IMG/VR virus record: IMGVR_UViG_3300029914_000004
Source: a virus
Taxonomy: Duplodnaviria; Heunggongvirae; Uroviricota; Caudoviricetes
Length of the DNA stretch: 64,000 nucleotides
Strand: one strand, 5' to 3'
In this document: positions 2,644 to 44,858 of the stretch, piece by piece
How the letters are laid out: each line of letters opens with the position of its first letter
Numbering within the stretch: the first letter of the stretch is position 1
Translations under genes and position numbers: made by a program
The notes under the pieces: generated by a model
Told to the model about the DNA's origin: nothing
What the model saw: the letters and a program-made list of their open reading frames with translations, nothing else
Database searches by the model: none

Positions 2644-2813
2644 TGAATATATTTTGTAGTCCAAAAGAAGAGACGCTGGCAGTACTCGAAAGACGAAACT
2701 GGGGCTAAAAATATCAAATGGTAATTTGCAGTATAGCGTAACGGAATGAGGGTGCAAGACCCTTCGAAATATATTCATTATAAGTTGTTGATTTTAAATA
2801 CTTTATTTTCTTA

Positions 2814-2842
2814 TTGACATTTAAATTTATTTGGGATATACT
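2814..2842 (+). promoter_or_regulatory. sigma70-like promoter (TTGACA-N17-TATACT) of the repeat-gene family
   Basis: TTGACA then a 17-nt spacer then TATACT, followed by 6 nt and ATG (leaderless architecture); upstream T-rich CTTTATTTTCTTA element is shared by all copies. Confidence 0.6.
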
Positions 2843-2848
2843 TTGTAT

Positions 2849-3088
2849 ATGAATGAAATTGAACAAATGGCTGCTGTACAACAATATGGCTGTGCAATTC
2901 AATACATCAAGAATCCAAGTGAAGCTGTGCAAATGGCTGCTGTACAACAATATGGCGAAGCAATTGAATATATAAAGAATCCAAGTGAAGCAATGCAAAT
3001 GGCTGCTGTACAACAAGATGGCCATTTCATTCAATACATCAAGAATCCAAGTGTGAATGCCAAATTAATGGCAAAATTGCTCTCATAA
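2849..3088 (+). CDS. DUF4116-like 20-aa tandem-repeat protein (short copy, about 3 repeats)
   Basis: Repeats PSEAVQMAAVQQYG.AI.YIKN and the family C-terminus INAKLMAKLLS; true ATG is 7 nt after the -10, within ORF-track frame 2831..3088. Confidence 0.65.
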   Translation: MNEIEQMAAVQQYGCAIQYIKNPSEAVQMAAVQQYGEAIEYIKNPSEAMQMAAVQQDGHFIQYIKNPSVNAKLMAKLLS

Positions 3089-3118
3089 GTTGTTAATTTT
3101 AAAGACTATATTTTCTTA

Positions 3119-3147
3119 TTGACAGTTGAATTTATTTAGGATATGCT
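3119..3147 (+). promoter_or_regulatory. second copy of the family promoter (TTGACA-N17-TATGCT)
   Basis: Same 5' T-rich element and spacing; ATG 6 nt downstream. Confidence 0.5.
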
Positions 3148-3153
3148 TTATAT

Positions 3154-3330
3154 ATGACATTGAAAGATAAACTCGAAAAGTATATTGATTCATTGCTAAC
3201 TGAAGAATGCTTTGATCCAATTAGTTATTCCAGTGATGCTTATTACAAGAGATGTGAAATAAAAGCAGAAGTGTTAGAAGATGTAATTTATTGTCTGAAA
3301 GAGATTCTGAAGGAGAGCAATGAAAATTAA
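3154..3330 (+). CDS. small hypothetical protein (58 aa)
   Basis: Leaderless-style ATG behind the family promoter; MTLKDKLEKYIDSLL...; below the ORF-track cutoff. Confidence 0.4.
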   Translation: MTLKDKLEKYIDSLLTEECFDPISYSSDAYYKRCEIKAEVLEDVIYCLKEILKESNEN

Positions 3331-3508
3331 TTACACCAAATTAAGCTATGAAGAAATGGCAGCAATTGTGAAAAACATTTCTGAAGAAACGAAGAATCGA
3401 AATCCTCTATTTGTTAATTCATATATGCAAGATTTTTATGAAGTTGTGAATATTCTACGTTACTTTCATGAAAGAAAACAAGAAAGCCCTGGATTTGACG
3501 AACAATAG
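3320..3508 (+). CDS. hypothetical protein
   Basis: 62-aa ORF; ATG overlaps the preceding stop. Confidence 0.4.
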   Translation: MKINYTKLSYEEMAAIVKNISEETKNRNPLFVNSYMQDFYEVVNILRYFHERKQESPGFDEQ

Positions 3509-3526
3509 AATTCGAAAGGAAAAATA

Positions 3527-3931
3527 ATGTCAATAGCTGCCAAAGATTTTTGTCGTGTAGTAAAACATGGAGACATTGCTGTTGTTCGTCTCTCAAATCG
3601 AGACTCTGCATGTGGCTGCGCTCCTGATTGGTCGCTCACCCAAACTGTGAAATTACACGTTCAACGTAGAGAAAGAGCATATAAAGAACGTGGCGTAGTT
3701 CACCCCGCTGGAGAAATTTGTGTTTTAGCCATTCAAAATGGTGGATGGGCAGAATATCGTGAAGAAGATTGGGAACCAGATTTTGCTTTATTCATTACTG
3801 AAGAATATCGCATGGAAATTCAGAGTCTGAATGGTGAAGATGTTATTCCTGCAAAGCCCTCAATTAATATTCAAAATGAAATTGTTGCCATGCAAAAATC
3901 AATTCTAAAAAATTTGAAGGGACAATTATGA
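3527..3931 (+). CDS. hypothetical protein
   Basis: 134-aa ORF; RBS AGGAAAAATAATG; elevated GC. Confidence 0.5.
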   Translation: MSIAAKDFCRVVKHGDIAVVRLSNRDSACGCAPDWSLTQTVKLHVQRRERAYKERGVVHPAGEICVLAIQNGGWAEYREEDWEPDFALFITEEYRMEIQSLNGEDVIPAKPSINIQNEIVAMQKSILKNLKGQL

Positions 3932-4122
3932 CATTCACAGATGAATTGCTCAGAGTTTTTAGTCTTGCAGCTATTGTAATTGGATTTTTTTGCCTAGTTT
4001 CTCTATCGTCATTAGCAATCATGCCTTATCCTGGAATATGGCTATTATTTGCCATACCAGGAATTATTTCTGGACTTATTGGTTTAGCATATATTTACTG
4101 GAAGGATAAAACTGAGGAATAA
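3928..4122 (+). CDS. small membrane protein
   Basis: 64 aa with two hydrophobic helices; ATGA start/stop overlap with the upstream gene. Confidence 0.45.
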   Translation: MTFTDELLRVFSLAAIVIGFFCLVSLSSLAIMPYPGIWLLFAIPGIISGLIGLAYIYWKDKTEE

Positions 4123-4126
4123 AATT

Positions 4127-4369
4127 ATGTATGATATTATCATAACAAATGCAGATTCCAACAAACCATTAAGAATGTTTGATAGTAATGGTATTACTTG
4201 GAATCTATTTGACTGGTGTGTTGAATATTTTGACGAAGAGCCATCTATTCTTCGCTATGAAGAATATGTTCCAGAAAATGAACAACCCAGTAAATTTATT
4301 CATGGCAAATATGGCCCATTTATTCTTGGAAATCTCACTGGAGTAGTTTGGTCAAGAAAGAGGAAATAA
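4127..4369 (+). CDS. hypothetical protein
   Basis: 80-aa ORF. Confidence 0.4.
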   Translation: MYDIIITNADSNKPLRMFDSNGITWNLFDWCVEYFDEEPSILRYEEYVPENEQPSKFIHGKYGPFILGNLTGVVWSRKRK

Positions 4370-4591
4370 ATGAGTGTTGGAAAGTATTCACCTACAATTC
4401 GAGAAATTTATCCTACTCAAGAACTTTTTGATCTGCAATTTCATCAGTCGGATAGTTCAATTTATGACGATGATGGTTATGACATGTATGGTTATGATGA
4501 AAATGATCTTGATCGAGACGGCCATGATCAATTTTATTATGAGCAGGAAGCTTTGCGTGAAGAATTGGGAGAGGATTATGGTTCTTTTTAA
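4370..4591 (+). CDS. hypothetical acidic protein
   Basis: 73 aa, D/E/Y-rich. Confidence 0.4.
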   Translation: MSVGKYSPTIREIYPTQELFDLQFHQSDSSIYDDDGYDMYGYDENDLDRDGHDQFYYEQEALREELGEDYGSF

Positions 4592-4808
4592 AGCAAAAAC
4601 AAATAAATTAGGAGATAAAAGAACTGTAATCAGTTTTGCATTATTTCCTACCAGAGTTTCTCAAAATAATACATCATCTGGTCCTATAATTTGGTTGGAA
4701 CGATACATAAAATTTCAAACTTATTTTATCGCCGAAGGTGTAAATGAATGGCAAACTTATGATAAGGTAAGATATGACGAAGCATTAATTGAAAAGTTGA
4801 GCGAATAA
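4578..4808 (+). CDS. small protein of the EKLSE C-terminal-motif family
   Basis: In the frame of ORF 4374..4808 from ATG 4578; FALFPTRV...IIWLERYI...YDEALIEKLSE; paralogous to 4810..5058. Confidence 0.5.
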   Translation: MVLFKAKTNKLGDKRTVISFALFPTRVSQNNTSSGPIIWLERYIKFQTYFIAEGVNEWQTYDKVRYDEALIEKLSE

Positions 4809-4809: not shown

Positions 4810-5058
4810 ATGATAATTAAATCTCGAAAAATAATCATAAAAGTAAAAAATGACCAAATTCGACAGCGAATCAAATTTGCGTGGTTTCCTACAAGAATGA
4901 AGTTATCAATAGAAGACAAATATGGCGAAATAATTTGGTTGGAAAAATATATAATTTTTGAAAAATATCAACATTCTCCATATGATTCTATAAAAGGATG
5001 GAAGTTGCATCAGAAAGTAAGAATTTCCGATGCAACTATTGAAAAATTGAGCGAATAA
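4810..5058 (+). CDS. small protein of the EKLSE C-terminal-motif family (paralog)
   Basis: FAWFPTRM...IIWLEKYI...ISDATIEKLSE. Confidence 0.55.
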   Translation: MIIKSRKIIIKVKNDQIRQRIKFAWFPTRMKLSIEDKYGEIIWLEKYIIFEKYQHSPYDSIKGWKLHQKVRISDATIEKLSE

Positions 5059-8860: not shown

Positions 8861-8862
8861 CA

Positions 8863-8891
8863 TTGACATTTATATTCAGATTTGCTATACT
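8863..8891 (+). promoter_or_regulatory. promoter (TTGACA-N17-TATACT), second of the duplicated pair
   Basis: CATTGACATTTATATTCAGATTTGCTATACT. Confidence 0.45.
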
Positions 8892-8910
8892 GGATTTGTG
8901 ATGGTTATCT

Positions 8911-9183
8911 ATGCATGATTTTACTGAAAGACTCAATGAATTGGCAACAATAGTAGTGGCTCGGAATAGCCCTACTATAACCGAAAAACGATGTAAGAGA
9001 ATATTTAAAATATTTCCAGTTCCATTGAAAAAGTTGTCAAATAATTATTTTGAAGGCTATCACAATTCCCATTGGTTTTCTACTGTATATATTTTTCAAG
9101 AAAAATTTTCAACTGGTAGAGGCTGGTACACAATGGCAGTTTTGGACAAAGATAGAGCAATTGAATATTTGCTGGAACGATAG
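8911..9183 (+). CDS. hypothetical protein
   Basis: 90-aa ORF. Confidence 0.4.
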   Translation: MHDFTERLNELATIVVARNSPTITEKRCKRIFKIFPVPLKKLSNNYFEGYHNSHWFSTVYIFQEKFSTGRGWYTMAVLDKDRAIEYLLER

Positions 9184-10887: not shown

Positions 10888-11997
10888 ATGAATCGCATTA
10901 AAAAAATTTCGTTTCCCGATTACAATCGCATTTTTGACCGCAAAACTGGTTTAACAATTGAATATGGAAAAACCATTGATGAAGACCCACCAATGTCTCC
11001 TGATGGCCCATCTATTGCTGATATTGAAATTTCTACTATTTGTAATGGATTTTCTCCTGATGGTGATATTACAAAAAGCAAACCTTGTGCTTGGTGTTAT
11101 AAAACAAACACAGCAAAAGGCACAAATATGTCATTGAATGAATTCAAACATATTTTGAAATTACTTGGGAATGTAGACCAAGTAGCATTGGGGTTAGGTG
11201 ATATTGAAAGTAACCCAGATATATGGAATATGTTATCCTATAGTCGTTCATTGGGAATAATTCCGAATTTGACAGTTAATGGTATGGGAATTACTCCAGA
11301 AATTGCAGATAAGTTAGCAAAGTTTTGTGGGGCTGTGGCGTGTTCTCATTATTCTGACAAAATTTGTTTTAATACTGTAAAAGCACTAACTGATGCTGGG
11401 TTAACTCAGGTGAATATTCACGCCCTTCTATCCAAAGAGACACTATCAAAATGTTTTGATTTGATTGATAAAGTATTCGAGTCAAAAAATGGTGGGGAAG
11501 ATAAAAGTCTCTCTGGATTAAAAGCAATTGTTTTTCTATTGCTCAAACCGAAAGGAGCTAGAAATAAATTTCATCCAGTGGAAAAATTAGAAGATTATAA
11601 AAAATTAATGGATTATGCCAGAGAGAAAAATGTTGCAATTGGAATGGATTCATGCTCTGCTCCAATGGCGTTGAAAACATTGCCATCTGAGTGCATTCCC
11701 TCCATTATTTGTTGTGAGTCAACATACACTTCAATTTATATTGACGTGAATTCTGAAGTATTTCCGTGTAGTTTTGCTGCTGGAACCCCAGGTTGGGAAA
11801 CTGGTATCGATATGAAAAATATCAATAATTTTTTAAATGATGTATGGTTTCATACCAAAATGATAAAATGGAGAGATGGATTAATAAAATCATCCAGTGA
11901 TTGCTCAAATTGTTCAACTCAAAAACATTGCAGAAGTTGCCAGATTTATGATGTGACTATTTGCAAAACAAAATTAGTTAATTTGGAGGTATTATAA
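10888..11997 (+). CDS. radical-SAM-like enzyme (CX14CX2C variant) with a C-terminal Cys-rich SPASM/twitch-like region
   Basis: IEISTIC-x14-CAWC; possible degenerate GGEP-like motif GLGDIESNP; C-terminal CSFAAG...CSNCSTQKHCRSCQIYDVTIC cluster. Confidence 0.45.
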   Translation: MNRIKKISFPDYNRIFDRKTGLTIEYGKTIDEDPPMSPDGPSIADIEISTICNGFSPDGDITKSKPCAWCYKTNTAKGTNMSLNEFKHILKLLGNVDQVALGLGDIESNPDIWNMLSYSRSLGIIPNLTVNGMGITPEIADKLAKFCGAVACSHYSDKICFNTVKALTDAGLTQVNIHALLSKETLSKCFDLIDKVFESKNGGEDKSLSGLKAIVFLLLKPKGARNKFHPVEKLEDYKKLMDYAREKNVAIGMDSCSAPMALKTLPSECIPSIICCESTYTSIYIDVNSEVFPCSFAAGTPGWETGIDMKNINNFLNDVWFHTKMIKWRDGLIKSSSDCSNCSTQKHCRSCQIYDVTICKTKLVNLEVL

Positions 11998-15016: not shown

Positions 15017-16294
15017 ATGAAAAATACTAATCTAGATATTAAATGTATTTTCTGTGGCAAAACTAGGGCCGAAAGTTCCAAAATTCTCGTGAGTGGAGAA
15101 TTTTCAATTTGTGATAAATGTGTGTTACTTTTCAATGGTCTTTTAGAAAATAGTAAACCTTCAGAAAAAAAAGCTAAAGAGAAAGAAATTAAGCAAGAAT
15201 CTGAATTAATATCTGAGGAAATTATTCCTCAATTAAATTCCATTGAAATTAAAAAATTTCTTGATAAGAATGTTATTGGGCAAGAAGAAGCAAAAATTGC
15301 ATTGAGCGTTAGTATAGTAAATCACTATAAAAGAATGCTATATGAAACAACTAATTATACACAATTAGACAAAAGTAATTTAATTATCACTGGACCGAGC
15401 GGAAGTGGAAAATCTCTTCTCATTAAAACAATTTCTAAATTTTTAAATGTTCCCTTCGTATCAATAGATGCTACTACATTGACCGAAGCTGGTTATATTG
15501 GAGAAAATGTAGACACTATCATTTCTCGGCTTCTTGCTAATGCAGATGGTGATATTGAAGCTGCTCAACAAGGAATTGTTTTTATTGATGAAATAGATAA
15601 AATTGCCACTGGAAAAACTAGAAGTAGCACAAGCGACAAACATGTATCTGGAGTTCAAGCTGCATTATTAAAAATGGTAGAAGGATCTATTGTAAGAATT
15701 CCATCGCCTTCAATTAAAAAATCATTTATTCCCCAATTAGTCGAAGTTGATACAACAAATATATTGTTCATTTGCGGCGGGGCATTTGAGGGATTAAATG
15801 AAATAGTTATTAATAGATTGAAAAAGAAATCAGGAATGGGGTTTACTGATGCTCCTATAAATAATAAAACTTTAGAAACAGAATATTCTACAGAAGATTT
15901 TATTGAATATGGAATAATTCCTGAATTTATTGGAAGATTTCCATTACATACATATACTACTGCATTGAGTACTGAAGAATTAATTAAAGTTTTAACAGAT
16001 TTAGACAATAATATGCTTTTTCAATATAAATTTTATTTTGAAATTGATGATATTGATATAGAATTTACTGATGAATTTATTGCCAAATTAGCCGCAAAAG
16101 CAAAAATGAATAAAACTGGAGTTCGTGGCCTTAAAGGATTGTGTGATTCAATAATGTCAGATCATTTATTTTTACTTCCTGAATATAAAAAACGTGGAAT
16201 TTTTAAATTAATATTTGACGAAAGTTGTATAGATAAAAAATCTATACCCAAATTTGAATTCACTACATTCAAAGAAAAAGTAAAAACTTCTTGA
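15017..16294 (+). CDS. clpX: ClpX-like AAA+ unfoldase
   Basis: N-terminal C4 zinc-binding domain CIFCGK...ICDKCV; Walker A ITGPSGSGKSLL; Walker B VFIDEIDKI; ClpX-like region GYIGE.V; about 425 aa. Confidence 0.8.
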   Translation: MKNTNLDIKCIFCGKTRAESSKILVSGEFSICDKCVLLFNGLLENSKPSEKKAKEKEIKQESELISEEIIPQLNSIEIKKFLDKNVIGQEEAKIALSVSIVNHYKRMLYETTNYTQLDKSNLIITGPSGSGKSLLIKTISKFLNVPFVSIDATTLTEAGYIGENVDTIISRLLANADGDIEAAQQGIVFIDEIDKIATGKTRSSTSDKHVSGVQAALLKMVEGSIVRIPSPSIKKSFIPQLVEVDTTNILFICGGAFEGLNEIVINRLKKKSGMGFTDAPINNKTLETEYSTEDFIEYGIIPEFIGRFPLHTYTTALSTEELIKVLTDLDNNMLFQYKFYFEIDDIDIEFTDEFIAKLAAKAKMNKTGVRGLKGLCDSIMSDHLFLLPEYKKRGIFKLIFDESCIDKKSIPKFEFTTFKEKVKTS

Positions 16295-17116: not shown

Positions 17117-17365
17117 ATGGCTTTTACAAATATTCAAGGAACACAGACTGCGTTTTTGCACAACTATCTTAGGGGTACAAATCGCACACTAACAGAGAAG
17201 CAAGCACTTAGTTTGTTCGGGATCAAAAATCTTCGTGCAAGATTGAGTGAACTTCGTCTTCTTGGTCTTCGAGTTCGCTCTGAAAAGACTCTTGATGGTC
17301 GTGCAAAGTATAGCGTGAGCCGTCGAGACGTTTACGGCAGTGAATTCAGCTTGGTTTCTAAGTAA
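17117..17365 (+). CDS. small basic protein, putative DNA-binding
   Basis: 82 aa, GC-richer than the surroundings, R/K-rich; RBS AAGGAG. Confidence 0.4.
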   Translation: MAFTNIQGTQTAFLHNYLRGTNRTLTEKQALSLFGIKNLRARLSELRLLGLRVRSEKTLDGRAKYSVSRRDVYGSEFSLVSK

Positions 17366-17420: not shown

Positions 17421-17444
17421 CAAAACAAAGCACTTATTTTCTTA

Positions 17445-17473
17445 TTGACAAATAAATTTATTTAGGATATTCT
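17445..17473 (+). promoter_or_regulatory. family promoter (TTGACA-N17-TATTCT, leaderless)
   Basis: CTTATTTTCTTATTGACAAATAAATTTATTTAGGATATTCTTTATATATG. Confidence 0.6.
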
Positions 17474-17479
17474 TTATAT

Positions 17480-18181
17480 ATGGATGAAAAAGCACAACTA
17501 GCTGCTGTTCAACAAAATGGTTATGCAATTCAATACATCGACAAGCCAAGCGAAGCTGTGCAACTGGCTGCTGTTCAACAAAATGGTTGTGCAATTGAAT
17601 ACATCAGCAAGCCAAGCGAAGCTGTGCAACTGGCTGCTGTTCAACAAAATGGTTGTGCAATTGAATACATCAGCAAGCCAAGCAAAGCTGTGCAACTAGC
17701 TGCTGTTCAACAAGATGGTTGGGCAATTGAATACATCAGAAATCCAAGCGAAGCTGTGCAATTGGCTGCTGTTCAACAAGATGGTTGGGCAATTGAATAC
17801 ATCGACAATCCAAGCGAAGCTGTGCAAATGGCTGCTATTCAACAAAATGGTTGGGCAATTGAATACATCGACAATCCAAGCGAAGCTGTGCAAATGGCTG
17901 CTATTCAACAAAATGGTCGTGCAATTGAATACATCAGCAAGCCAAGCGAAGCTGTGCAAATGGCTGCTGTTCAACAAGATGGTTGTGCAATTAAATACAT
18001 CGACAAACCAAGCGAAGCTGTGCAAATGGCTGCTGTTCAACAAAATAGTGCGGTAATTCAATACATCGACAAGCCAAGCGAAGCTGTGCAACTGGCTGCT
18101 GTTCAAGAAAATAGTGCGGTAATTCAATTCATAAAAAATCCAACAATTAATGTCAAATTAGTGGCTAAATTGCTATCTTAA
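17480..18181 (+). CDS. DUF4116-like 20-aa tandem-repeat protein (about 11 repeats)
   Basis: Eleven near-identical 60-nt (20-aa) units PSEAVQLAAVQQNGxAIEYI(S/D)K; C-terminus INVKLVAKLLS. Confidence 0.7.
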   Translation: MDEKAQLAAVQQNGYAIQYIDKPSEAVQLAAVQQNGCAIEYISKPSEAVQLAAVQQNGCAIEYISKPSKAVQLAAVQQDGWAIEYIRNPSEAVQLAAVQQDGWAIEYIDNPSEAVQMAAIQQNGWAIEYIDNPSEAVQMAAIQQNGRAIEYISKPSEAVQMAAVQQDGCAIKYIDKPSEAVQMAAVQQNSAVIQYIDKPSEAVQLAAVQENSAVIQFIKNPTINVKLVAKLLS

Positions 18182-18212
18182 CATATTCAAAACAAAGCAC
18201 TTATTTTCTTAT

Positions 18213-18240
18213 TGACTTTACTCTTAAACGTTGATATACT
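18213..18240 (+). promoter_or_regulatory. promoter (TTGACT-N16-TATACT) variant
   Basis: Same 5' T-rich element; near-duplicate at 43097. Confidence 0.45.
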
Positions 18241-18483
18241 ATATTTGTAAGATAAATGGAGTTTTAGGTGTAGTAAAAATCCAAATGCAATTTAAAAGCA
18301 GATTTCGCCAAAAACTTATCATAAAGCGTCCACTGCTGCCAAAGTTTGGTCAGAACATGTATCTTTGTATATAGCACAAGATTTTGTACAGTTTGTTTGG
18401 GATTCTGTGCAATACCAACTAGCGTATCAGCGTAGTATCAAGATTTTCCAACAAATTCTACCATAATCAAAGGGGAATAAACA

Positions 18484-18695: not shown

Positions 18696-19430
18696 ATGAT
18701 CGACAAAATATTTCCGCAAGATGAAGTTTGGGCTGCTGCTGTAGCAGCTCAAAGAATCAATGGCGTATATGTCAAGAGAGTAAACCACTTATATACACGA
18801 AATGCATCTTTTATTTCTTTTGATAACCCAAAAAATATCGTATCAGAAAATGATTCAAAGCCAACTAATGTTTCTTTAATAAGAGCATTTCTAAATTCTG
18901 ACAAGTCTAACCTCACACTTGAAGATTTTGAAAATGGTCAAAAGATTCGTGAATATTTTTGTACTCTAATATCTTTGATATTTTCTGGTGAAGCCAGAGA
19001 ATATATTAAGATGGCAGTCGCAGCGGCTGCATTGCAAACAATTTCTTTGACTGGAAAAGAGCTACCTTTAATTGCTTCAATGCCAGAGGCATATCAAAAG
19101 AATATGGAAAGAGAAAAAGTTCGATCTTTTCTTTCAGTAATGCAAGCAAATAGTGTTTCTATACCAAATTGTTCTAGTGCTTCCCCGAGTAGTTTTATAT
19201 TTACAGTAGTTGATTGCAAATTTAATAAAAAGTTTTGCCATACTCCATGGGCAATTAATGCTATCGTTTCAAACAAAGATGGCAGCAATTCTTTAGTGTA
19301 TTTTTTTGATTTTAAAGAATGGAAAGTTGGACAAACATATTCTGCTAGTGCATATGTAAAAAGAATAAATGAACAAATAACACAACTTGAATATGTAGCT
19401 CTGGAAAGTAAAATAAATGACAAAAAATAA
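18696..19430 (+). CDS. hypothetical protein
   Basis: 244-aa ORF. Confidence 0.5.
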   Translation: MIDKIFPQDEVWAAAVAAQRINGVYVKRVNHLYTRNASFISFDNPKNIVSENDSKPTNVSLIRAFLNSDKSNLTLEDFENGQKIREYFCTLISLIFSGEAREYIKMAVAAAALQTISLTGKELPLIASMPEAYQKNMEREKVRSFLSVMQANSVSIPNCSSASPSSFIFTVVDCKFNKKFCHTPWAINAIVSNKDGSNSLVYFFDFKEWKVGQTYSASAYVKRINEQITQLEYVALESKINDKK

Positions 19431-27814: not shown

Positions 27815-27876
27815 CTTTACATACATCGACAATCCAACAATTAATGTCAAATTAGTGGCTAAATTGCTGTCTTAAA
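27815..27876 (+). repeat. orphan 3'-end fragment of a DUF4116-like repeat gene (recombination remnant)
   Basis: ...YIDNPTINVKLVAKLLS* coding tail with no gene body, directly upstream of the next family promoter. Confidence 0.6.
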
Positions 27877-27904
27877 ATATTCAAAACAAAGCACTTATTT
27901 TCTT

Positions 27905-27933
27905 ATTGACAAATAAATTTATTTAGGATATTC
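27905..27933 (+). promoter_or_regulatory. family promoter
   Basis: TTGACAAATAAATTTATTTAGGATATTCT. Confidence 0.6.
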
Positions 27934-27940
27934 TTTATAT

Positions 27941-28478: not shown

Positions 28479-29099
28479 ATGATTGTAATTATAGGCGATG
28501 TTCATGGAAAATGGAATGAGTATAGTAAAATACTCAATAAATATCCAAATGAAATAAGTATTCAAATCGGCGACTGTGGTGTTGGCTTCCCAAAATCACC
28601 AGAATTAATATTACCAAAAAATGCATTTTGGTTTAGAGGAAATCATGATAATCCTGATACTGCAAAAAATCACCCCAATCATTTAGGAGACTTCGGATCA
28701 AAAATTATTGACGGAATAAAGATTTTTTGGGTGGCTGGAAGTTGGAGCATTGATCAACAATTTAGAATTCCTGGATGGACTTGGTGGGAAGACGAAGAAT
28801 TGTCAATCAGAGAACTTGAAACTGCGATGGAGCAATATCTAAAAGTCAAACCAGATGTCATGCTAACTCATGATACTGCTGGACCGTTTGCATCCAAAAT
28901 ATTGTCAAAATATTCAATTATGGGTGACGGACTTGTTTATCCTACGAGAACTGGTCAAGCATTATCTGCTATGTTTGAAGCTTATCAACCAAAACTTTGG
29001 GTTTGCGGTCATTATCATGCTTCTGTTACTGAAATTATCAAAGGAACAAAATTTATTTGCTTAAACGAATTAGAATCACTGGAACTTACAAATGTTTAA
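28479..29099 (+). CDS. calcineurin-like metallophosphoesterase
   Basis: IIGDVHGKW and RGNHDNP motifs. Confidence 0.65.
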   Translation: MIVIIGDVHGKWNEYSKILNKYPNEISIQIGDCGVGFPKSPELILPKNAFWFRGNHDNPDTAKNHPNHLGDFGSKIIDGIKIFWVAGSWSIDQQFRIPGWTWWEDEELSIRELETAMEQYLKVKPDVMLTHDTAGPFASKILSKYSIMGDGLVYPTRTGQALSAMFEAYQPKLWVCGHYHASVTEIIKGTKFICLNELESLELTNV

Positions 29100-32648: not shown

Positions 32649-32754
32649 TTATTGAAAATTTTCCTGCTTTATCCTTTTCATAAATTTTCTACCAAAAGTA
32701 ATATCTTTAGCTAAAAAATGGTATATTCAACAAAATAAAGAACTTATTTTCTTA

Positions 32755-32783
32755 TTGACAAATAAATTTATTTAGGATATTCT
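32755..32783 (+). promoter_or_regulatory. family promoter
   Basis: TTGACA-N17-TATTCT. Confidence 0.6.
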
Positions 32784-32789
32784 TTATAT

Positions 32790-32963
32790 ATGGATGAAAA
32801 AGCACAACTGGCTGCTGTTCAACGAAATGGTTGGGCAATTCAATTCATCAGAAATCCAAGCGAAACTGTGCAACTGGCTGCTGTTCAACAAGATGGTCAT
32901 GCAATTGAATTTATCGACAATCCAACAATTAATGTCAAATTAATGGCTAAATTGCTGTCTTAA
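32790..32963 (+). CDS. DUF4116-like repeat protein (minimal two-repeat copy, 57 aa)
   Basis: MDEKAQLAAVQRNGWAIQFIRNPSETVQLAAVQQDGHAIEFIDNPTINVKLMAKLLS. Confidence 0.6.
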   Translation: MDEKAQLAAVQRNGWAIQFIRNPSETVQLAAVQQDGHAIEFIDNPTINVKLMAKLLS

Positions 32964-32994
32964 CATATTCAAAACAAAGCACTTATTTTCTTAT

Positions 32995-33023
32995 TGACAA
33001 ATCACCTAAAGTTTAGTATACTT
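32995..33023 (+). promoter_or_regulatory. family promoter with a conventional leader (TTGACA-N17-TATACT)
   Basis: Followed by a 22-nt leader with a GGAG RBS. Confidence 0.55.
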
Positions 33024-35133: not shown

Positions 35134-35316
35134 ATGTATATTCCAGAAGAGATGTTTGCAATTCGTTCACACGCTCCAAACCGAAAATTTGAAATTTTTG
35201 GCACAATAGTTTGTTTAACTTCTTCTTCTGAAATAGGTAGTATAATTGAAACTTTTAAATTTTCATCTAATCAAGAAGCTAAAGATGCAGTACTTTTGGT
35301 GAAATTATCAACATGA
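35134..35316 (+). CDS. small protein with the C-terminal EAKD..LVKLS motif (family variant)
   Basis: FKFSSNQEAKDAVLLVKLST. Confidence 0.4.
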   Translation: MYIPEEMFAIRSHAPNRKFEIFGTIVCLTSSSEIGSIIETFKFSSNQEAKDAVLLVKLST

Positions 35317-36681: not shown

Positions 36682-37310
36682 GTAACTTTGATAAACTGAA
36701 GAAACAATTAGATAAAGCAGAGGAAAATGCTTCTATTAAACGTGAAGAATTTTATGGTTTAATCACAGAAGTATTGTCTGTATTTAATTTGAATAATGAT
36801 CATTACGACGATGTATGGTCAAATGAAACTCATGTAATTGTGAACTATAGCTGGAGGGCTGCTGGATGTAACTGCTCAGATTCTATTACTCTCCCAAAGT
36901 CAATTTTTGATGCTGCTGATCCTGTTGCCGTCGCAAAAATTTATAAAAATGATCTTGATAATAGCAAGAAAAAGTCTGAACGTTCAATAAAATTAGAAGA
37001 ATTTAATGCTTTAAAGAAAGAACTTGGTGTAAAAATAATGAAAGCAACTCATCCAATACAACCATTAGTTAGCGACAAAGTTGGAACAACCAGATTTAAA
37101 GAAAATGCTATTGTTAGCTATCTTATTGACATTGCAACACAAAAAGGCATAGCAGACATGAATTCTCTGGCTATTATGAATTTCTCAAATGAAGATCGTG
37201 AGCAATTTGCTCAACTGATTGGATATTCATTGGACGGATTTGGTGAATTATCATATGTAAGTGATGAGACATATGATTTGGCTGCAAAGCAAAAAGTTTT
37301 TAAGGAATAA
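36678..37310 (+). CDS. hypothetical protein
   Basis: 210-aa ORF. Confidence 0.5.
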   Translation: MSNFDKLKKQLDKAEENASIKREEFYGLITEVLSVFNLNNDHYDDVWSNETHVIVNYSWRAAGCNCSDSITLPKSIFDAADPVAVAKIYKNDLDNSKKKSERSIKLEEFNALKKELGVKIMKATHPIQPLVSDKVGTTRFKENAIVSYLIDIATQKGIADMNSLAIMNFSNEDREQFAQLIGYSLDGFGELSYVSDETYDLAAKQKVFKE

Positions 37311-37329
37311 ATACAAGTGTTAAATAACG

Positions 37330-37700
37330 CTCGTGAAAGGACAGTATAAAATCAACGGACAACACACCGGTTCAACTCCGGTCAGGTCCACCAAATTTAT
37401 GATTCAATGTTTTATTTGGGCCTGTCATGGTATCGATTGACGTGTGGTTGGACTACTGACGAGCCGACTGGTGTGGCCATCGTAAATGGACACATAAACA
37501 ATAATTGCTACCTCTGGTATCAATGGCAGTGCAAAGATTTTCACGTATTCTGTGAATCTCCGCAACACTGAGCTAGTAAACGCCTAATAAGCTTTACTCC
37601 GAGGAGTTGTTCCGTCCTTGTAAAAGAAACGGAACTATAAAATTTCCTTTAACAACTCAGTAGATCACTGCATATAGGACAATTTTATTTTGCATCTAGA
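37330..37700 (+). ncRNA. ssrA: candidate circularly permuted (two-piece) tmRNA-like RNA
   Basis: T-arm plus 3' acceptor plus CCA (ACCGGTTCAACTCCGGT-CAGGTCC-A-CCA; GGTTCAACTCC is identical to the E. coli tmRNA T-arm) with no 5' acceptor upstream; perfectly complementary 5' acceptor GGGCCTG 14 nt downstream, followed by ATCGATTGACG (compare tmRNA GGATTCGACG); 420-nt ORF-free, GC-richer, hairpin-rich region; possible tag frame ending AAC GCC TAA TAA. Confidence 0.4.
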
Positions 37701-37741: not shown

Positions 37742-37924
37742 ATGAAAAAATTAATATATAAAATTCGTTTTGATCTTGGTTTCCTTTATCCATATGTTGT
37801 ATATAACTTTTTAGAAGGAACCACTATGGTTGATGACTTTCCTGAGCATGTGGAACATATAGAATTTTTTAAAACTGAGCAAGAAGCCAAAGATTTTATT
37901 CTAATAGAAAAGTTGGCAGCATGA
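37742..37924 (+). CDS. small-protein array gene 1 (C-terminus EQEAKDFILIEKLAA)
   Basis: Conserved roughly 45-nt 3' block; ATGA overlap with the next gene. Confidence 0.55.
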   Translation: MKKLIYKIRFDLGFLYPYVVYNFLEGTTMVDDFPEHVEHIEFFKTEQEAKDFILIEKLAA

Positions 37925-38097
37925 AAATAATATATACAATCGTCCCTCCATTTGAAGAAGAAATGAAATGGATGGTTATGAAAAGATGGATATCATCACA
38001 GGATGCATGTGTAGATTATAAAATACCAAGATTTTACAGATTTGAATCTGAGCAAGAAGCTGAAAATTTCATTTTATTAGAAAAGTTAGCATCATGA
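37921..38097 (+). CDS. small-protein array gene 2 (C-terminus SEQEAENFILLEKLAS)
   Basis: 58 aa; ATGA-coupled; below the ORF-track cutoff. Confidence 0.5.
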   Translation: MKIIYTIVPPFEEEMKWMVMKRWISSQDACVDYKIPRFYRFESEQEAENFILLEKLAS

Positions 38098-38285
38098 AAT
38101 ACTCATATCGTATAGATCATATTAAATATAGAACAATCTTTCAATGGTCAGTTAGAAAATATTCAAATTATTCTCATCCAAACAATAACAATTCGTGGGC
38201 GTGGAATTTATTATCAGAAAGTTTTTATTTTGAAACTGAGCAAGAAGCCAAAGATTTTGTTCTAATAGAGAAATTATCATCATGA
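38094..38285 (+). CDS. small-protein array gene 3 (C-terminus TEQEAKDFVLIEKLSS)
   Basis: ATGA-coupled. Confidence 0.55.
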   Translation: MKYSYRIDHIKYRTIFQWSVRKYSNYSHPNNNNSWAWNLLSESFYFETEQEAKDFVLIEKLSS

Positions 38286-38455
38286 AAATAACATATGAGC
38301 TACTTGAATTAGATAATGGATGGGGAGTAGCTGCGCGGCAGCAAAAAACTCCGCAAGATGCATTTCTTCGTCAAGAGGCAAGAACAAATATGTTTTGGTT
38401 TTCAAATAGAAAAGAAGCAGAAGATTTCATTTTAATAGAAAAGTTGGCAGAATGA
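38282..38455 (+). CDS. small-protein array gene 4 (C-terminus NRKEAEDFILIEKLAE)
   Basis: 57 aa; ATGA-coupled. Confidence 0.5.
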   Translation: MKITYELLELDNGWGVAARQQKTPQDAFLRQEARTNMFWFSNRKEAEDFILIEKLAE

Positions 38456-38637
38456 AAAAATATACAATCATCCCTCCACAGGAATACAATGATAAATGGA
38501 TAGTCCGGGAAAGACTATATGTTGGAGATACTGAATGTGTGATTAATACCATTGAACTTAAAATTCCTAAAGTTTATATATTTGATTCTAAGAAAGAAGC
38601 AGAAGATTTCATTTTAATAGAAAAATTATCATCATGA
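38452..38637 (+). CDS. small-protein array gene 5 (C-terminus SKKEAEDFILIEKLSS)
   Basis: ATGA-coupled. Confidence 0.55.
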   Translation: MKKYTIIPPQEYNDKWIVRERLYVGDTECVINTIELKIPKVYIFDSKKEAEDFILIEKLSS

Positions 38638-38774
38638 AACGAAAATATAATCTTTATCATCTTACAAAATGGTATGTAGAAGTATGGGCTGAAAGTTTAT
38701 GCCCTCTTTTATATTCATTTGATTCTAAGAAAGAAGCAGAAGATTTCATTTTAATAGAAAAATTATCATCATGA
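38634..38774 (+). CDS. small-protein array gene 6 (C-terminus SKKEAEDFILIEKLSS)
   Basis: 46 aa; its 3' 45 nt are identical to gene 5. Confidence 0.45.
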   Translation: MKRKYNLYHLTKWYVEVWAESLCPLLYSFDSKKEAEDFILIEKLSS

Positions 38775-38798
38775 AACTAAGAAAGAGGCAGAAAAATT

Positions 38799-39056
38799 AT
38801 GTCAATGAAAATTTTATGCACGCCAACAAAATCAGCGAGTGATTTTGGAGAATATAATCCAATCAGAAAATGGAAAATTGAACCAAAAATTTATGAACCA
38901 GAAAAATTTCTTTACAAAACATGGTTTGAATTAAATAGCGAGGATACTAAAAGAAACTATGGTGTTTCATTCTTACTGGGAACATTATTTACAGCAGAAT
39001 TCACCTCCAAAAAAGAAGCTGAAATTTTTTCAGTAATAGATAAACTCATAAGTTGA
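38799..39056 (+). CDS. small-protein array gene 7 (C-terminus SKKEAEIFSVIDKLIS)
   Basis: 85 aa; overlaps the start of the next gene. Confidence 0.55.
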   Translation: MSMKILCTPTKSASDFGEYNPIRKWKIEPKIYEPEKFLYKTWFELNSEDTKRNYGVSFLLGTLFTAEFTSKKEAEIFSVIDKLIS

Positions 39057-42494: not shown

Positions 42495-42528
42495 ACATTT
42501 GGTTGATTCTAAAGAACTTATTTTCTTA

Positions 42529-42557
42529 TTGACAAATAAATTTATTTAGGATATTCT
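42529..42557 (+). promoter_or_regulatory. family promoter
   Basis: TTGACA-N17-TATTCT then 6 nt then ATG. Confidence 0.6.
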
Positions 42558-42563
42558 TTATAT

Positions 42564-43046
42564 ATGAATGAAAAAGCACAACTGGCTGCTGTTCAACAAA
42601 ATGGTTATGCAATTCAATACATCGACAAGCCAAGCGAAGCTATGCAAATGGCTGCTGTTCAACAAAATGGTTGTGCAATTGAATACATCAGCAAGCCAAG
42701 CGAAGCTGTGCAAATGGCTGCTGTTCAACAAAATGGTCGGGCAATTTACTACATCGACAAGCCAAGCGAAGCTGTGCAACTGGCTGCTGTTCAACAAAAT
42801 GGTTATGCAATTGAATACATCGACAAGCCAAGCGAAGCTGTGCAAATGGCTGCTGTTCAACAATATGGTCGTGCAATTGAATACATCAGCAAGCCAAGCG
42901 AAGCTGTGCAAATGGCTGCTGTTCAAGAAGATAGTTGGGCAATTTGCTACATCGACAAGCCAAGCGAAACTGTGCAAATGGCTGCTGTTCAACGAAATTA
43001 TTGGGCAATTCAATTCATAAAAAGCCAACAATTAATGTCAAATTAA
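42564..43046 (+). CDS. DUF4116-like tandem-repeat protein (about 7 repeats; frameshifted C-terminus)
   Basis: An A-run one nt shorter than in sister copies converts ...KPTINVKLMAKLLS into ...SQQLMSN*. Confidence 0.65.
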   Translation: MNEKAQLAAVQQNGYAIQYIDKPSEAMQMAAVQQNGCAIEYISKPSEAVQMAAVQQNGRAIYYIDKPSEAVQLAAVQQNGYAIEYIDKPSEAVQMAAVQQYGRAIEYISKPSEAVQMAAVQEDSWAICYIDKPSETVQMAAVQRNYWAIQFIKSQQLMSN

Positions 43047-43096
43047 TGGCTAAATTGCTGTCTTAAAATATTCAAAACAAAGCACTTATTTTCTTA

Positions 43097-43125
43097 TTGA
43101 CTTTACTCTTAACCTTTGATACAAT
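43097..43125 (+). promoter_or_regulatory. promoter (TTGACT-N17-TACAAT)
   Basis: Near-duplicate of 18213; leader carries GGAGAG RBS. Confidence 0.5.
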
Positions 43126-43143
43126 ATATTTATTGGAGAGTAT

Positions 43144-43455
43144 ATGACTGATATGACAGTTGCAAAGACGATTCTAGAACAGCTCGGCGGCCCTCGTTTT
43201 TTGGTAATGACTGGCGCTCGTGGTCTGGTTGGCTCCGAAAATTCTCTTAGTTTCAAAGTTCCAAATGCCGCAAAGAAGATTACACAAGTGATTATAACTA
43301 TAATGCCTTCAGATACTTACAAGATGGAATTCATAAATTGCCGAATGGCGGCGCATGGGTTAAAACGTGAAATTATCAGTTCATTTGATGATGTTTATTG
43401 TGATCAACTTCAAAAAATCTTCACTGAAGAGACAGCTCTTTATACTCATATTTAA
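43144..43455 (+). CDS. hypothetical protein (GC-richer cassette)
   Basis: 103-aa ORF. Confidence 0.45.
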   Translation: MTDMTVAKTILEQLGGPRFLVMTGARGLVGSENSLSFKVPNAAKKITQVIITIMPSDTYKMEFINCRMAAHGLKREIISSFDDVYCDQLQKIFTEETALYTHI

Positions 43456-43496
43456 ATTATACATATTATCATATATAATCCATCCATAAAGTAAAC

Positions 43497-43526
43497 AAAA
43501 GCCCCATGAGATTGTCATGGGGCTTT
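43497..43526 (+). terminator. rho-independent terminator
   Basis: AAAAGCCCCATGA-GATTG-TCATGGGGCTTTC. Confidence 0.75.
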
Positions 43527-43720
43527 CTGCTACGCCAAAATACCTTTTTAAGTCATTGATTCTAAAGACCCAAAAACAAGAAAAATGCCCTATAACCCGC
43601 TCTAAGCCCCTCAGACATGTCCAAGTGCCATAAAGCAAATAATATTGCTTAAAAGGCATTTTTAAGCTCTTTGTTTTGTGTTTGTTACAAATTGTTGATT
43701 GCAAAGCACTTATTTTCTTA

Positions 43721-43749
43721 TTGACAAATAAATTTATTTAGGATATTCT
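43721..43749 (+). promoter_or_regulatory. family promoter
   Basis: TTGACA-N17-TATTCT. Confidence 0.6.
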
Positions 43750-43755
43750 TTATAT

Positions 43756-44127
43756 ATGAATGAAAAAGCACAACTGGCTGCTGTTCAACGAAATTATCGT
43801 GCAATTCAATACATCGACAAGCCAAGCGAAGCTGTGCAAATGGTTGCTGTTCAACAATATGGTCGTGCAATTTACTACATCGACAAGCCAAGCGAAGCTG
43901 TGCAACTGGCTGCTGTTCAACAAGATGGTCGTGCAATTCAACACATCGACAAGCCAAGCGAAGCTGTGCAAATGGCTGCTGTTCAAGAAACTAGTCGGGC
44001 AATTTGCTACATCGACAAGCCAAGCGAAACTGTGCAAATGGCTGCTGTTCAACGAGATAGTTGGGCAATTCAATTCATAAAAAAGCCAACAATTAATGTC
44101 AAATTAATGGCTAAATTGCTGTCTTAA
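43756..44127 (+). CDS. DUF4116-like tandem-repeat protein (about 5 repeats)
   Basis: Repeats plus canonical C-terminus PTINVKLMAKLLS. Confidence 0.7.
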   Translation: MNEKAQLAAVQRNYRAIQYIDKPSEAVQMVAVQQYGRAIYYIDKPSEAVQLAAVQQDGRAIQHIDKPSEAVQMAAVQETSRAICYIDKPSETVQMAAVQRDSWAIQFIKKPTINVKLMAKLLS

Positions 44128-44157
44128 CATATTCAAAGCAAAGCACTTATTTTCTTA

Positions 44158-44186
44158 TTGACAAATAAATTTATTTAGGATATTCT
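44158..44186 (+). promoter_or_regulatory. family promoter
   Basis: TTGACA-N17-TATTCT. Confidence 0.6.
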
Positions 44187-44192
44187 TTATAT

Positions 44193-44828
44193 ATGGATGA
44201 AAAAGCACAACTGGCTGCTGTTCGACAAGATGGTCGTGCAATTAAATACATCGACAAGCCAAGCGAAGCTGTGCAAATGGCTGCTGTTCGACAAGATGGT
44301 TGGGCAATTAAATACATCAGCAAGCCAAGCGAAGCTGTGCAAATGGCTGCTGTTCAACAATATGGTCGTGCAATTTACTACATCGACAAGCCAAGCGAAG
44401 CTGTGCAAATGGCTGCTGTTCAACAATATGGTCGTGCAATTTACTACATCGACAAGCCAAGCGAAGCTGTGCAACTGGCTGCTGTTCAACAAACTAGTCG
44501 TGCAATTCAATACATCGACAAGCCAAGCGAAGCTGTGCAAATGGCTGCTGTTCAACAATATGGTTGTGCAATTTACTACATCGACAAGCCAAGCGAAGCT
44601 GTGCAACTGGCTGCTGTTCAACAAGATGGTCGTGCAATTCAACACATCGACAAACCAAGCGAAGCTGTGCAACTGGCTGCTGTTCAAGAAGATGGTTGTG
44701 CAATTAAATACATCAGCAAGCCAAGCGAAGCTGTGCAAATGGCTGCTGTTCAACAAAATGGTTGTGCAATTGAATGCATAAAAAAGCCAACAATTAATGT
44801 CAAATTAATGGCTAAATTGCTGTCTTAA
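44193..44828 (+). CDS. DUF4116-like tandem-repeat protein (about 10 repeats)
   Basis: Repeats plus canonical C-terminus. Confidence 0.7.
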   Translation: MDEKAQLAAVRQDGRAIKYIDKPSEAVQMAAVRQDGWAIKYISKPSEAVQMAAVQQYGRAIYYIDKPSEAVQMAAVQQYGRAIYYIDKPSEAVQLAAVQQTSRAIQYIDKPSEAVQMAAVQQYGCAIYYIDKPSEAVQLAAVQQDGRAIQHIDKPSEAVQLAAVQEDGCAIKYISKPSEAVQMAAVQQNGCAIECIKKPTINVKLMAKLLS

Positions 44829-44858
44829 CATATTCAAAGCAAAGCACTTATTTTCTTA

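Follow-up and report, generated by a model that had tools for sequence, protein, structure and literature searches.

Promoter-flanked DUF4116 repeat genes in a jumbo phage, probably resized and moved as cassettes by homologous recombination

Here we describe a family of small repeat genes in a 64,000-nt stretch of DNA (hereafter the window) from an uncultivated jumbo (giant) phage that is not a close relative of T4; its best clamp-loader match (54%) is to the PA5oct group. At least seven genes, all on the + strand, are composed solely of DUF4116 helical repeats of 22 residues per unit. The explanation that we find probable for the whole is that these are amplified DUF4116 cassettes, resized and moved by homologous recombination. 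The window would be part of the early, accessory-gene region of the phage, in whose lineage a small DUF4116-only gene would have been amplified to at least seven copies.

A sequence-only reading had proposed seven intact genes and a 3′ remnant, and open reading frames are indeed present at all seven proposed starts, with a tail remnant at 27815–27875. Its assignment of the genes to DUF4116 also stands: the five genes scanned against Pfam (A, B, C, D and G) match PF13475 with E-values of 1e-5 to 1e-32 and scores of 33.8, 111.5, 83.2, 25.0 and 92.4 bits, respectively, all above the curated gathering threshold of 24.9 bits that sets membership, and genes E and F are built of the same units as the other members. 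The unit is 66 nt or 22 residues long (period 66 in TRF), not 60 nt and 20 residues as first given with a consensus that itself has 22 positions, and the genes hold 2–10 units rather than 2 to 11. A gene normally ends in a half-repeat cap (the tail). The members and related features are:

2849–3088, + strand: gene A, a diverged member; 3 units and tail PSVNAKLMAKLLS; invariant across samples
17480–18181, + strand: gene B; 10 units and tail; found with both flanks in two other assemblies
27815–27875, + strand: solo remnant without a gene body; 18 nt from the end of a unit, then the 42-nt tail and a stop
27941–28474, + strand: gene C; tail-less, with 8 units in the window and different internal unit counts in other assemblies
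32790–32963, + strand: gene D; 2 units and tail; identical in L014
42564–43066, + strand: gene E; 7 units; stop at 43046, then out-of-frame tail sequence to 43066
43756–44127, + strand: gene F; 5 units and tail; protein identical in five other assemblies
44193–44828, + strand: gene G; 9 units and tail
46566–46847, + strand: eighth, diverged relative; non-repeat N terminus, about one unit and tail PCKEAKLLAKIMS

Searches for the 5′ and 3′ end motifs, allowing 3 mismatches, returned six matches each, all on the + strand, where none is expected in shuffles; gene A was missed at both ends. The claim that all copies share identical ends holds for most genes, and fails for gene A, which has diverged at both ends, and for gene C, which lacks the common tail. 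The units of gene A are at least 11 of 66 nt away from those of every other gene. Distances between units are nearly equal within genes (7.8) and between genes (8.3), and the pI values of the paralogs span 4.4 to 9.2. The eighth relative, which carries the family beyond the range first delimited (2800–44830), matches gene D in BLASTP (E 4e-13) and scores below the Pfam threshold for PF13475. A C-terminal ...KLxS ending is common to the family and about 20 other small early proteins of the phage.

The shared promoter proposed earlier is present at all seven genes. Their predicted promoter is TTGACA-17-TATTCT (the −10 of gene A is TATACT), with the ATG 6 nt after the −10 hexamer; these sites match 10–11 of 12 consensus positions and, by sequence match, carry an upstream element, TTATTTTCTTA. 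In all, the + strand holds about 25 TTGACA-17-TAnnnT sites. The 16-mer TTATTTTCTTATTGAC of the upstream element occurs in 12 exact copies and one with a single mismatch, every one adjoining a DUF4116 gene, 7 upstream and 6 downstream. The earlier account had missed the downstream copies: a segment of about 35 nt, comprising the upstream element and −35 hexamer, recurs directly 3′ of six of the seven genes, where it heads the promoter of the next gene. With the same promoter segment before and after it, each gene forms a cassette between direct repeats. The corresponding features are:

2803–2848, + strand: predicted promoter of gene A; upstream element, −35 at 2814–2819, −10 TATACT at 2837–2842, 6 nt, ATG
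3089–3153, + strand: second full DUF4116-type promoter, one mismatch in the 16-mer; precedes an unrelated 58-residue gene (3154–3330)
17434–17479, + strand: predicted promoter of gene B; TTGACA at 17445, TATTCT at 17468–17473
18182–18240, + strand: upstream/−35 segment repeat after gene B, with a different spacer and −10 (TTGACT-17-TATACT); predicted promoter of the downstream region
27876–27940, + strand: predicted promoter of gene C; 16-mer and hexamer matches
32744–32789, + strand: predicted promoter of gene D; 16-mer and hexamer matches
32964–33022, + strand: upstream/−35 segment repeat; forms the predicted promoter of the CCA-adding enzyme gene
42518–42563, + strand: predicted promoter of gene E; 16-mer and hexamer matches
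43067–43125, + strand: upstream/−35 segment repeat, 94% identical over 64 nt to the segment after gene B; forms the predicted promoter of the open reading frame 43144–43455
43545–43700, + strand: intergenic segment, conserved ahead of the promoter in several related contigs; collinearity with the strain variant L026 reaches no further left
43701–43755, + strand: predicted promoter of gene F; 16-mer and hexamer matches
44128–44192, + strand: predicted promoter of gene G; 16-mer and hexamer matches
44829–44887, + strand: upstream/−35 segment repeat; predicted promoter (TTGACA-17-TATTAT) of a 26-codon hydrophobic open reading frame (44906–44986)

A cassette would thus read as the segment of about 35 nt that includes the −35 hexamer, a fixed spacer and −10 hexamer, an ATG 6 nt on, N units and a tail, followed 18 nt on by the same segment as the −35 half of the next promoter. 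Tail and promoter together make a 107-nt unit (for example 44086–44192, the tail of F plus the promoter of G), in keeping with the portable unit of roughly 110 bp suggested before. This unit folds no better than its shuffles (z = +0.57) and contains no stable stem-loop, and no + strand terminator was found between the family genes and the next promoter. Morons in the sense of Hendrix et al. are said to be inserted genes with both their own promoter and their own terminator; the family genes have the promoter, but no terminator follows the gene, and we rejected this identity. Judged from their sequence, the promoters are presumably active and early. Downstream of cassettes, GGAG and a start codon come after the predicted promoters; the family genes themselves may begin leaderless or with a poor Shine–Dalgarno sequence. 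This last reading is uncertain, since the −10-to-ATG distance in related contigs is 4 nt rather than 6, and one copy in L083 lacks the −35 hexamer and has an AGGAG leader.

Two distant syntenic relatives (L072 and L073; 42–72% amino-acid identity over about 12 genes) have no DUF4116 genes and display the corresponding empty sites. In one, a terminator, a promoter and the phosphatase gene come after an Rpb6-like gene. In another, the promoter orthologous to the segment at 18182–18240 after gene B lies directly after the homolog of 17117–17365. The family is kept in the related phages L002, L004, L013 and L026.

In assemblies of this phage from other samples, the flanks match the window at 100% identity but the arrays differ by 1–3 units, which bears out the active unequal recombination that had been proposed. 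All of these comparisons use short-read assemblies, most of which break inside arrays and some of whose joins are possibly chimeric, so that some unit counts may be distorted. For gene E, the window shows 7 units and L053 shows 8, between 100% identical flanks of 919 and 701 nt; the additional unit agrees with units 2/3 of gene G at every nucleotide. For gene G, the 9 units of the window compare with 11 in L084 (a 2-unit tandem duplication, with 2,209 nt of flank at 100% identity) and 8 in L026, where there is one unit fewer and the first unit is replaced; the cassette limits in L026 fall at the TTGACA hexamer. Variants of gene B are present in L061 and L065, with at least 11 units in L065 against 10 in the window, and for gene C at least 11 units, against 8, are inferred from L070 together with 5′ contigs. 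In L083, gene G is apparently missing between identical units, in a join that is possibly an assembly chimera, as may also be the gene order in that assembly and a join in L045.

Short-read assembly of one or a few repeat loci could instead have produced the dispersed copies along with their order and unit counts, the artefact that the sequence-only reading had itself named as its refutation. Contigs from many samples terminate inside arrays, L045 runs from the first part of gene C straight into the last part of gene F, and the identical tail–promoter–start stretch is close in length to the k = 141 of several assemblies; the unit 2/unit 3 junction of gene C in the window is not reproduced in other assemblies, and L041, L042 and L044 disagree with it. 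However, unique flanks bound every locus on both sides and several loci recur in other assemblies: the 10-unit gene B with both flanks in L057 and L059, the F–G tandem in L026, L084, L085 and L086, gene A at nucleotide identity in five assemblies, the frameshift of gene E in L049 and L053, and the remnant junction in six assemblies. The loci are thus reproduced in part, with L045 looking chimeric, and we consider a wholesale artefact very unlikely.

Genes E and C depart from the normal gene end. The single-nucleotide contraction noticed earlier in an A run of gene E is real (5 A against 6 in the others; CATAAAAAGCC versus CATAAAAAAGCC), and this deletion causes the frame to be lost ahead of the tail. 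Gene C ends in ...KYIRKR and a stop, 4 nt before a metallophosphatase gene (28479–29099), and a tail and promoter sit upstream of this tail-less gene, both junctions falling at ATACAT of the unit. The junctions recur in six assemblies on the 5′ side and four on the 3′ side, and the chance that both breakpoints coincide within the unit is about 1 in 8. The permuted copy (27815–28474) looks like the re-insertion of an excised circle, which would make a circular intermediate a candidate step in cassette movement, and it could also come from two separate deletions.

Under the recombination model, the direct repeats and the near-identical 66-nt units would be substrates for the homologous recombination of the phage. 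Exchange between flanking segments would insert, delete or duplicate whole cassettes, possibly via excised circles, and unit-to-unit exchange, whether inside one gene or across paralogs, would add, remove or swap units in frame. A dedicated machine (a site-specific recombinase, homing endonuclease or diversity-generating retroelement) that moves or mutates the cassettes would account for their ending at a defined sequence, and an HNH endonuclease gene (19417–20037) lies 1.2 kb downstream of gene B. Yet that gene is near a single copy only, a scan of roughly 40 larger open reading frames turned up no integrase or transposase, and the sequence shared at boundaries ranges from 18 to about 68 nt, as homologous exchange predicts. 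A retroelement in particular was rejected: the scanned frames include no reverse transcriptase, there is no template/variable repeat pair, and the variable sites carry all four bases and are not adenine-specific. We give a dedicated machine hardly any credence.

The AlphaFold2 (AF2) model is an all-helical, periodic α-solenoid (pLDDT 97.3, pTM 0.85), as had been expected from the repeat and as is predicted for the DUF4116 family (PMC8078820). Each unit forms a long helix (residues 3–12), a short helix (14–19) and a loop. Foldseek matches the model to DUF4116 proteins of giant viruses and Atu_ph07 (E 1e-10 to 1e-8, TM up to 0.85); searches of PDB, PADLOC and NCBIfam returned nothing on binding partners. 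Core positions of the repeat are invariant, and variable residues occur at positions 13, 15, 18 and 21, which the model places on the short helix and neighbouring loops. Of 42 inferred non-synonymous steps, 20 fall at five positions that also vary in the wider family (binomial P = 3e-4). We make no claim of positive selection, because the overall non-synonymous excess falls short of significance (ratio 1.7, P = 0.14) and the variable positions are also generally unconstrained in DUF4116.

The promoter repeats and in-frame units might expand and contract without adaptive role, the proteins being dispensable passengers. Unit gain or loss keeps the frame automatically, since 66 = 22 × 3; two copies (E and C) have lost the normal C terminus; the family is absent from more distant relatives; and the non-significant excess points the same way. 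By contrast, the invariant core with variation limited to surface positions, the consensus promoter kept at each copy, the persistence of the family in the four related phages and its recurrence in expanded form in other very large viruses argue against this, and we regard a purely neutral origin as unlikely.

The arrangement resembles the PeSL (promoter-early stem-loop) shuffling and mini-circles of T4-like phages (Arbiol et al. 2010, PMC2839356; Comeau et al. 2014, PMC4122927). Both have predicted strong sigma-70-type consensus promoters with AT-rich upstream regions, repeated in an accessory region and flanking small genes; in both, promoters bound indels between close relatives, and the empty sites of the more distant L072 and L073 retain theirs; and the circles expected from recombination of flanking copies fit the permuted copy at gene C. 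The differences are that the shared unit here lacks a stem-loop terminator, that the phage is not T4-like, that the cargo is one paralogous repeat family instead of unrelated ORFans, and that the conserved linker includes the gene 3′ tail. The T4 internal-protein loci likewise hold small, highly variable accessory genes in which promoter-containing repeats confine shuffling (PMC2839356), but internal proteins are packaged and cleaved after a capsid-targeting leader that this family lacks. Multiple DUF4116 genes with the same repeat and predicted solenoid are found in giant eukaryotic viruses and the largest jumbo phages (Klosneuvirus, Hokovirus, Marseillevirus LCMAC201, Atu_ph07 and SCTP-2). 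There, DUF4116 mostly makes up one domain within a longer protein, such as an F-box fusion or the 300–470-residue proteins of SCTP-2, whereas here it forms bare arrays of 2–10 near-identical units, each array with its own promoter. Ankyrin repeats and DARPins, and the leucine-rich repeat variant 1LRV, are similar in their short helical repeats, stacked solenoid, conserved core and variation limited to a few surface positions per repeat.

The products may be early proteins made in abundance, which would bind variable targets in hosts or competitors. A broader reading, which we consider unlikely, joins a recombination-driven repertoire of modular binders, a counterpart of antigenic variation or variable receptors, to the KLxS ending as a mark of common fate. 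Dispersed cassettes would exchange 22-residue units and whole genes via their promoter linkers, new binding surfaces would keep arising against changing host defences or receptors, and KLxS may mark small early proteins, for example for a phage ClpX-like ATPase.

Promoter-mediated modular shuffling, so far described from T4-like phages, would under the recombination model extend to an unrelated jumbo phage, with support from natural populations in arrays that change between 100% identical flanks and in a permuted copy resembling a re-inserted circle. In practical terms, the cassettes break short-read assemblies of the phage. DUF4116 is large (about 7,900 clusters at 50% identity match at E ≤ 0.001), and our literature search found no published account of its expansion or function in phages. 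The bare arrays, predicted strong early promoters, defined variable positions and natural size variants described here offer a tractable setting for this family, and open possible roles for DUF4116 proteins in host takeover or counter-defence.

Seven genes on the + strand of the window (A to G, listed below) are composed of DUF4116 repeat units. By translation the unit is 66 nt or 22 amino acids long, PSEAVQ(L/M)AAVQQxGxAIxYIxK, and TRF returned a period of 66 in all arrays; the 60 nt and 20 amino acids given by the sequence-only reading were a miscount. Its DUF4116 assignment holds, with Pfam scores above threshold in all five genes scanned. PHROGs matches were to unknown-function families only, and PADLOC and NCBIfam returned nothing meaningful.

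DUF4116 genes and solo tail in the window
2849-3088, + strand: gene A, 3 units, tail PSVNAKLMAKLLS
17480-18181, + strand: gene B, 10 units, tail PTINVKLVAKLLS
27815-27875: solo tail
27941-28474, + strand: gene C, 8 units, without tail, ending ...KYIRKR and stop
32790-32963, + strand: gene D, 2 units, common tail
42564-43046, + strand: gene E, 7 units, frameshift ahead of the tail
43756-44127, + strand: gene F, 5 units, common tail
44193-44828, + strand: gene G, 9 units, common tail
46566-46847: eighth, diverged DUF4116 relative; N-terminus without repeats, roughly one unit, tail PCKEAKLLAKIMS and stop

The common tail is 13 residues long (PTINVKLMAKLLS) and aligns with the first half of the unit, and is thus a half-repeat cap. 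The 5' and 3' gene ends had been described as identical. Both motifs indeed match six times each on the + strand, where none is expected by chance, but gene A is a diverged member (at least 11 of 66 nt differ between its units and all others), gene C has no tail and gene E is frameshifted. The run of A before the tail is one A shorter in gene E, as had been noticed, and the frameshift is real, since it recurs in two other assemblies (L049 and L053). The eighth relative lies outside the range covered earlier; it matches gene D (BLASTP E 4e-13) and is under the Pfam threshold. A similar gene is present in the relative L005 (~11075-11326).

All DUF4116 genes share one promoter version, ...CAAAGCAC TTATTTTCTTA TTGACA aataaatttatttagga TATTCT ttatat ATG. 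The 16-mer TTATTTTCTTATTGAC, which the sequence-only reading missed, occurs in 13 copies (12 exact, one with a single mismatch), each beside a DUF4116 gene, 7 of them upstream and 6 immediately downstream. The stop codon is followed by 18 nt and then by a repeat of the ~35-nt upstream/-35 segment, here fused to another spacer and -10 hexamer, which are used by the following gene. Direct repeats, 18 to ~68 nt long, thus flank each gene. After gene A it is the entire promoter that recurs, spacer and 6-nt gap to ATG included, before an unrelated 58-aa gene. The + strand has about 25 TTGACA-17-TAnnnT sites. Behind the sites that lie downstream of cassettes come GGAG and a start codon, and these sites therefore look like sigma-70-type early promoters. 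The cassettes resemble the promoter-early stem-loop (PeSL) cassettes of T4-like phages in their manner of working (PMC2839356, PMC4122927). However, we do not file them as PeSL: a defining feature, the stem-loop, is absent from the shared unit of tail and promoter (fold z = +0.57), and all of them carry members of one repeat family. No terminator was found after the DUF4116 genes. Between the end of the -10 hexamer and the ATG lie 6 nt in the window, a distance suggestive of a leaderless mRNA; we hold this reading loosely because the spacer contains AGGA, the gap is 4 nt in related contigs, and one copy elsewhere has an AGGAG leader without a -35 hexamer.

Duplicates of other promoters also occur, with the spacer and the first transcribed stretch identical (25219-25274 and 25483-25538, 91% identical over 56 nt with different small ORFs behind; also 8861-8916), and portability is thus a general property of this phage's promoter units, beyond those of the DUF4116 genes. 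The motif (G)TTGATTnnAAAG is found repeatedly in the window (for example at 2781-2797, 3089-3106, 42497-42513, 43552-43568 and 43686-43704) and in relatives (L005 9735-9752; intergenic in L072/L073), in either orientation, shortly before promoters and behind terminators; to our eye its reverse complement may resemble an IHF-type site. An intergenic segment of ~190 nt upstream of the gene F promoter (43545-43734) is conserved (68-97%) in five other contigs, where its counterparts always precede a promoter, and forms the left end of collinearity with the strain variant L026. A structured RNA in this segment was rejected (no Rfam match, no covariation). Past the promoter after gene B, ~240 nt (18241-18483) are free of convincing ORFs up to the gene at 18484; a small RNA or a long leader may account for this stretch. 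A hydrophobic 26-codon ORF (MTTFLIKEIKILAILTLATILFAAFT, 44906-44986) with its own promoter and GGAGG site lies between gene G and 45012-46142.

The window belongs, as we read it, to an uncultivated jumbo phage. It has a G+C content of 33% and carries tRNA genes, a permuted tmRNA, a long + strand accessory block (NadA, IMPDH/GMP reductase, PP2C, ClpX-like ATPase, HNH, PNKP, two RNA ligases, ThyX, Rpb6-like protein, metallophosphatase, CCA-adding enzyme, amidoligase, RNase T and PTPS) and a - strand block that includes replication genes, among them a clamp loader with 54% identity to its counterpart in PA5oct-group jumbo phages. A syntenic relative sits on a 360-kb viral contig. Near-identical DNA was absent among GenBank phages, the CCA-enzyme gene as synteny anchor gave no relatives in IMG/VR, and gene G had no relatives, close or distant, in 185,579 bacterial genomes, a comparison that thus gave no hint of the host. 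The tmRNA, of the two-piece type (37329-37534; Rfam RF04321, 73 bits against a threshold of 47; also called by ARAGORN at 37297-37678), may be a clue to host lineage. Four long tRNA genes cluster at 338-1684, three for Ser and one, 92 nt long, for Cys; only two of the four are above the Rfam threshold. Six paralogous genes of ~60 aa stand in tandem at 37742-38774 (also 38799-39056 and 35134-35316) and form a second amplified small-gene family; stop and start codons overlap in ATGA, and the 69-nt 3' end, which encodes ...(E/K)EA(E/K)DFILIEKL(S/A)S and stop, is conserved.

Across the whole window, the ending hydrophobic-hydrophobic-x-(K/R)-L-x-x-stop is shared by 24 of the 128 non-overlapping ORFs, against ~1.5 expected by chance (for example 4374-4808, 4810-5058, 21016-21321, 22693-23055, 37742-39056, 46267-46569 and 47038-47671). 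Endings include ...LIEKLSS, ...IIEKLSK and ...YIKLLS, each before the stop, and the DUF4116 tail, ...AKLLS, is one instance. The codons differ, so the constraint acts on the protein. Present in the relatives L004 (9/26), L005 (6/37) and L072 (5/35) and absent from L073, SCTP-2 and Atu_ph07, this ending may be a shared C-terminal signal or helix. AAA+ ATPase genes lie near DUF4116 genes: a ClpX-like gene (15017-16294) 1.2 kb before B, a weak AAA match (45012-46142) immediately after G and, in L026 (2387-3577, - strand), a MoxR-like gene between DUF4116 genes. This nearness may be coincidence.

Two more distant relatives, L072 and L073, are collinear with the window over ~12 genes (42-72% aa identity) and contain no DUF4116 in 12.6 kb. 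Only a terminator and a promoter separate their Rpb6-like and phosphatase genes, and the ortholog of the post-gene-B promoter directly follows the homolog of 17117-17365. Nearer relatives (L002, L004, L013 and L026) carry the same cassette, flanking promoter segment included, at 87-91% DNA identity; the ORFs next to it in L002 and L004 are without homologs in the window, and two cassette limits in L026 coincide exactly with the TTGACA hexamer. Such comparisons provide evidence that the DUF4116 cassettes are insertions. SCTP-2 and Atu_ph07 were rejected as examples of the same design, their repeats lying within larger proteins.

Exact-protein look-ups located the same phage in at least 10 JGI metagenomes, and also in other assemblies from ENA and Logan.

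Unit numbers in the window and in other assemblies
Gene A: 3 in the window; nucleotide-identical in five assemblies
Gene B: 10 in the window; 10 in L057 and L059, confirmed with both flanks; at least 11 in L065
Gene C: 8 in the window; three more in L070, one fewer in L071
Gene E: 7 in the window; 8 in L053, flanks of 919 and 701 nt 100% identical
Gene G: 9 in the window; 11 in L084 (units 6-7 duplicated in tandem, 2209 nt identical flank); 8 in L026, first unit different

The active unequal recombination proposed from the sequence is borne out by these differences in genes E, G, B and C, which for E and G (L084) are found on identical flanks. The extra unit of gene E in L053 is nucleotide-identical to units 2/3 of gene G, and gene B in L061 has other units at its N-terminal end. 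Unit-to-unit differences are 7.8 within genes and 8.3 between genes, as expected if paralogs exchange units. The sequence-only reading had itself named assembly artefact as the explanation that would overturn it. Most contigs stop inside the arrays, in L045 the beginning of gene C is joined to the end of gene F, L083 has F in the place of G, and the stretch that is identical between copies, from tail through promoter to gene start, is close in length to the k-mer of the assemblers. For these reasons some joins may be chimeras, and the number of units that the window shows for gene C is doubtful. A pure assembly artefact is nevertheless unlikely, since the loci are reproduced in other assemblies. 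We have no evidence for a dedicated recombinase or retroelement as driver, neither being found among the roughly 40 larger ORFs scanned in the window.

Locus C is circularly permuted: a unit end, a tail and the promoter lie upstream, and the gene body then runs tail-less into the phosphatase gene. Both junctions are at the ATACAT of the unit and recur in independent assemblies (6 for the 5' side, 4 for the 3' side). The arrangement is suggestive of an excised circle re-inserted at short microhomology, and two separate deletions could also account for it. Overall, it is well supported that the promoter-bracketed cassettes have expanded specifically in this lineage and that homologous recombination resizes and moves them.

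AlphaFold2 (49-sequence alignment; pLDDT 97.3, pTM 0.85) predicts for each unit two helices, of 10 and then 6 residues, with a one-residue break between them, followed by a 5-residue loop. This regular helical model agrees with the alpha-solenoid anticipated from the sequence, a fold also predicted earlier for DUF4116 in a modelling paper (PMC8078820). Good matches among predicted viral structures were DUF4116 proteins from giant viruses (several of these being F-box fusions), from Atu_ph07 and from one further phage. The family comprises 7,902 clusters (E <= 0.001), most members having the array within a much longer protein; the N-terminal domains of longer homologs contained no Pfam families except F-box, DUF7666 and DUF3945 in a few. 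We found no literature on DUF4116 function or phage expansion.

Variation among 44 units is concentrated at codons 7, 12-15, 18, 21 and 22, and synonymous sites are nearly invariant. Nearly half of the inferred non-synonymous steps (20/42) fall at the five positions that vary in the wider family (p = 3e-4). Whole-array dN/dS gave no proof of positive selection, the non-synonymous excess being not significant (ratio 1.7, p = 0.14). Clustered steps without a significant overall excess thus indicate protein-level constraint with a variable face, positive selection not being proven. The paralogs range in pI from 4.4 to 9.2. From the predicted fold, the variable surface and the F-box fusions among homologs of eukaryotic viruses, in which the repeats would be substrate receptors, we infer that the products may be abundant early binders of variable targets; that they are a neutral by-product seems to us rather improbable. 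The promoter-bracketed DUF4116 expansion is real and can be carefully described; it is of moderate interest for phage genome plasticity and offers an entry point to DUF4116.
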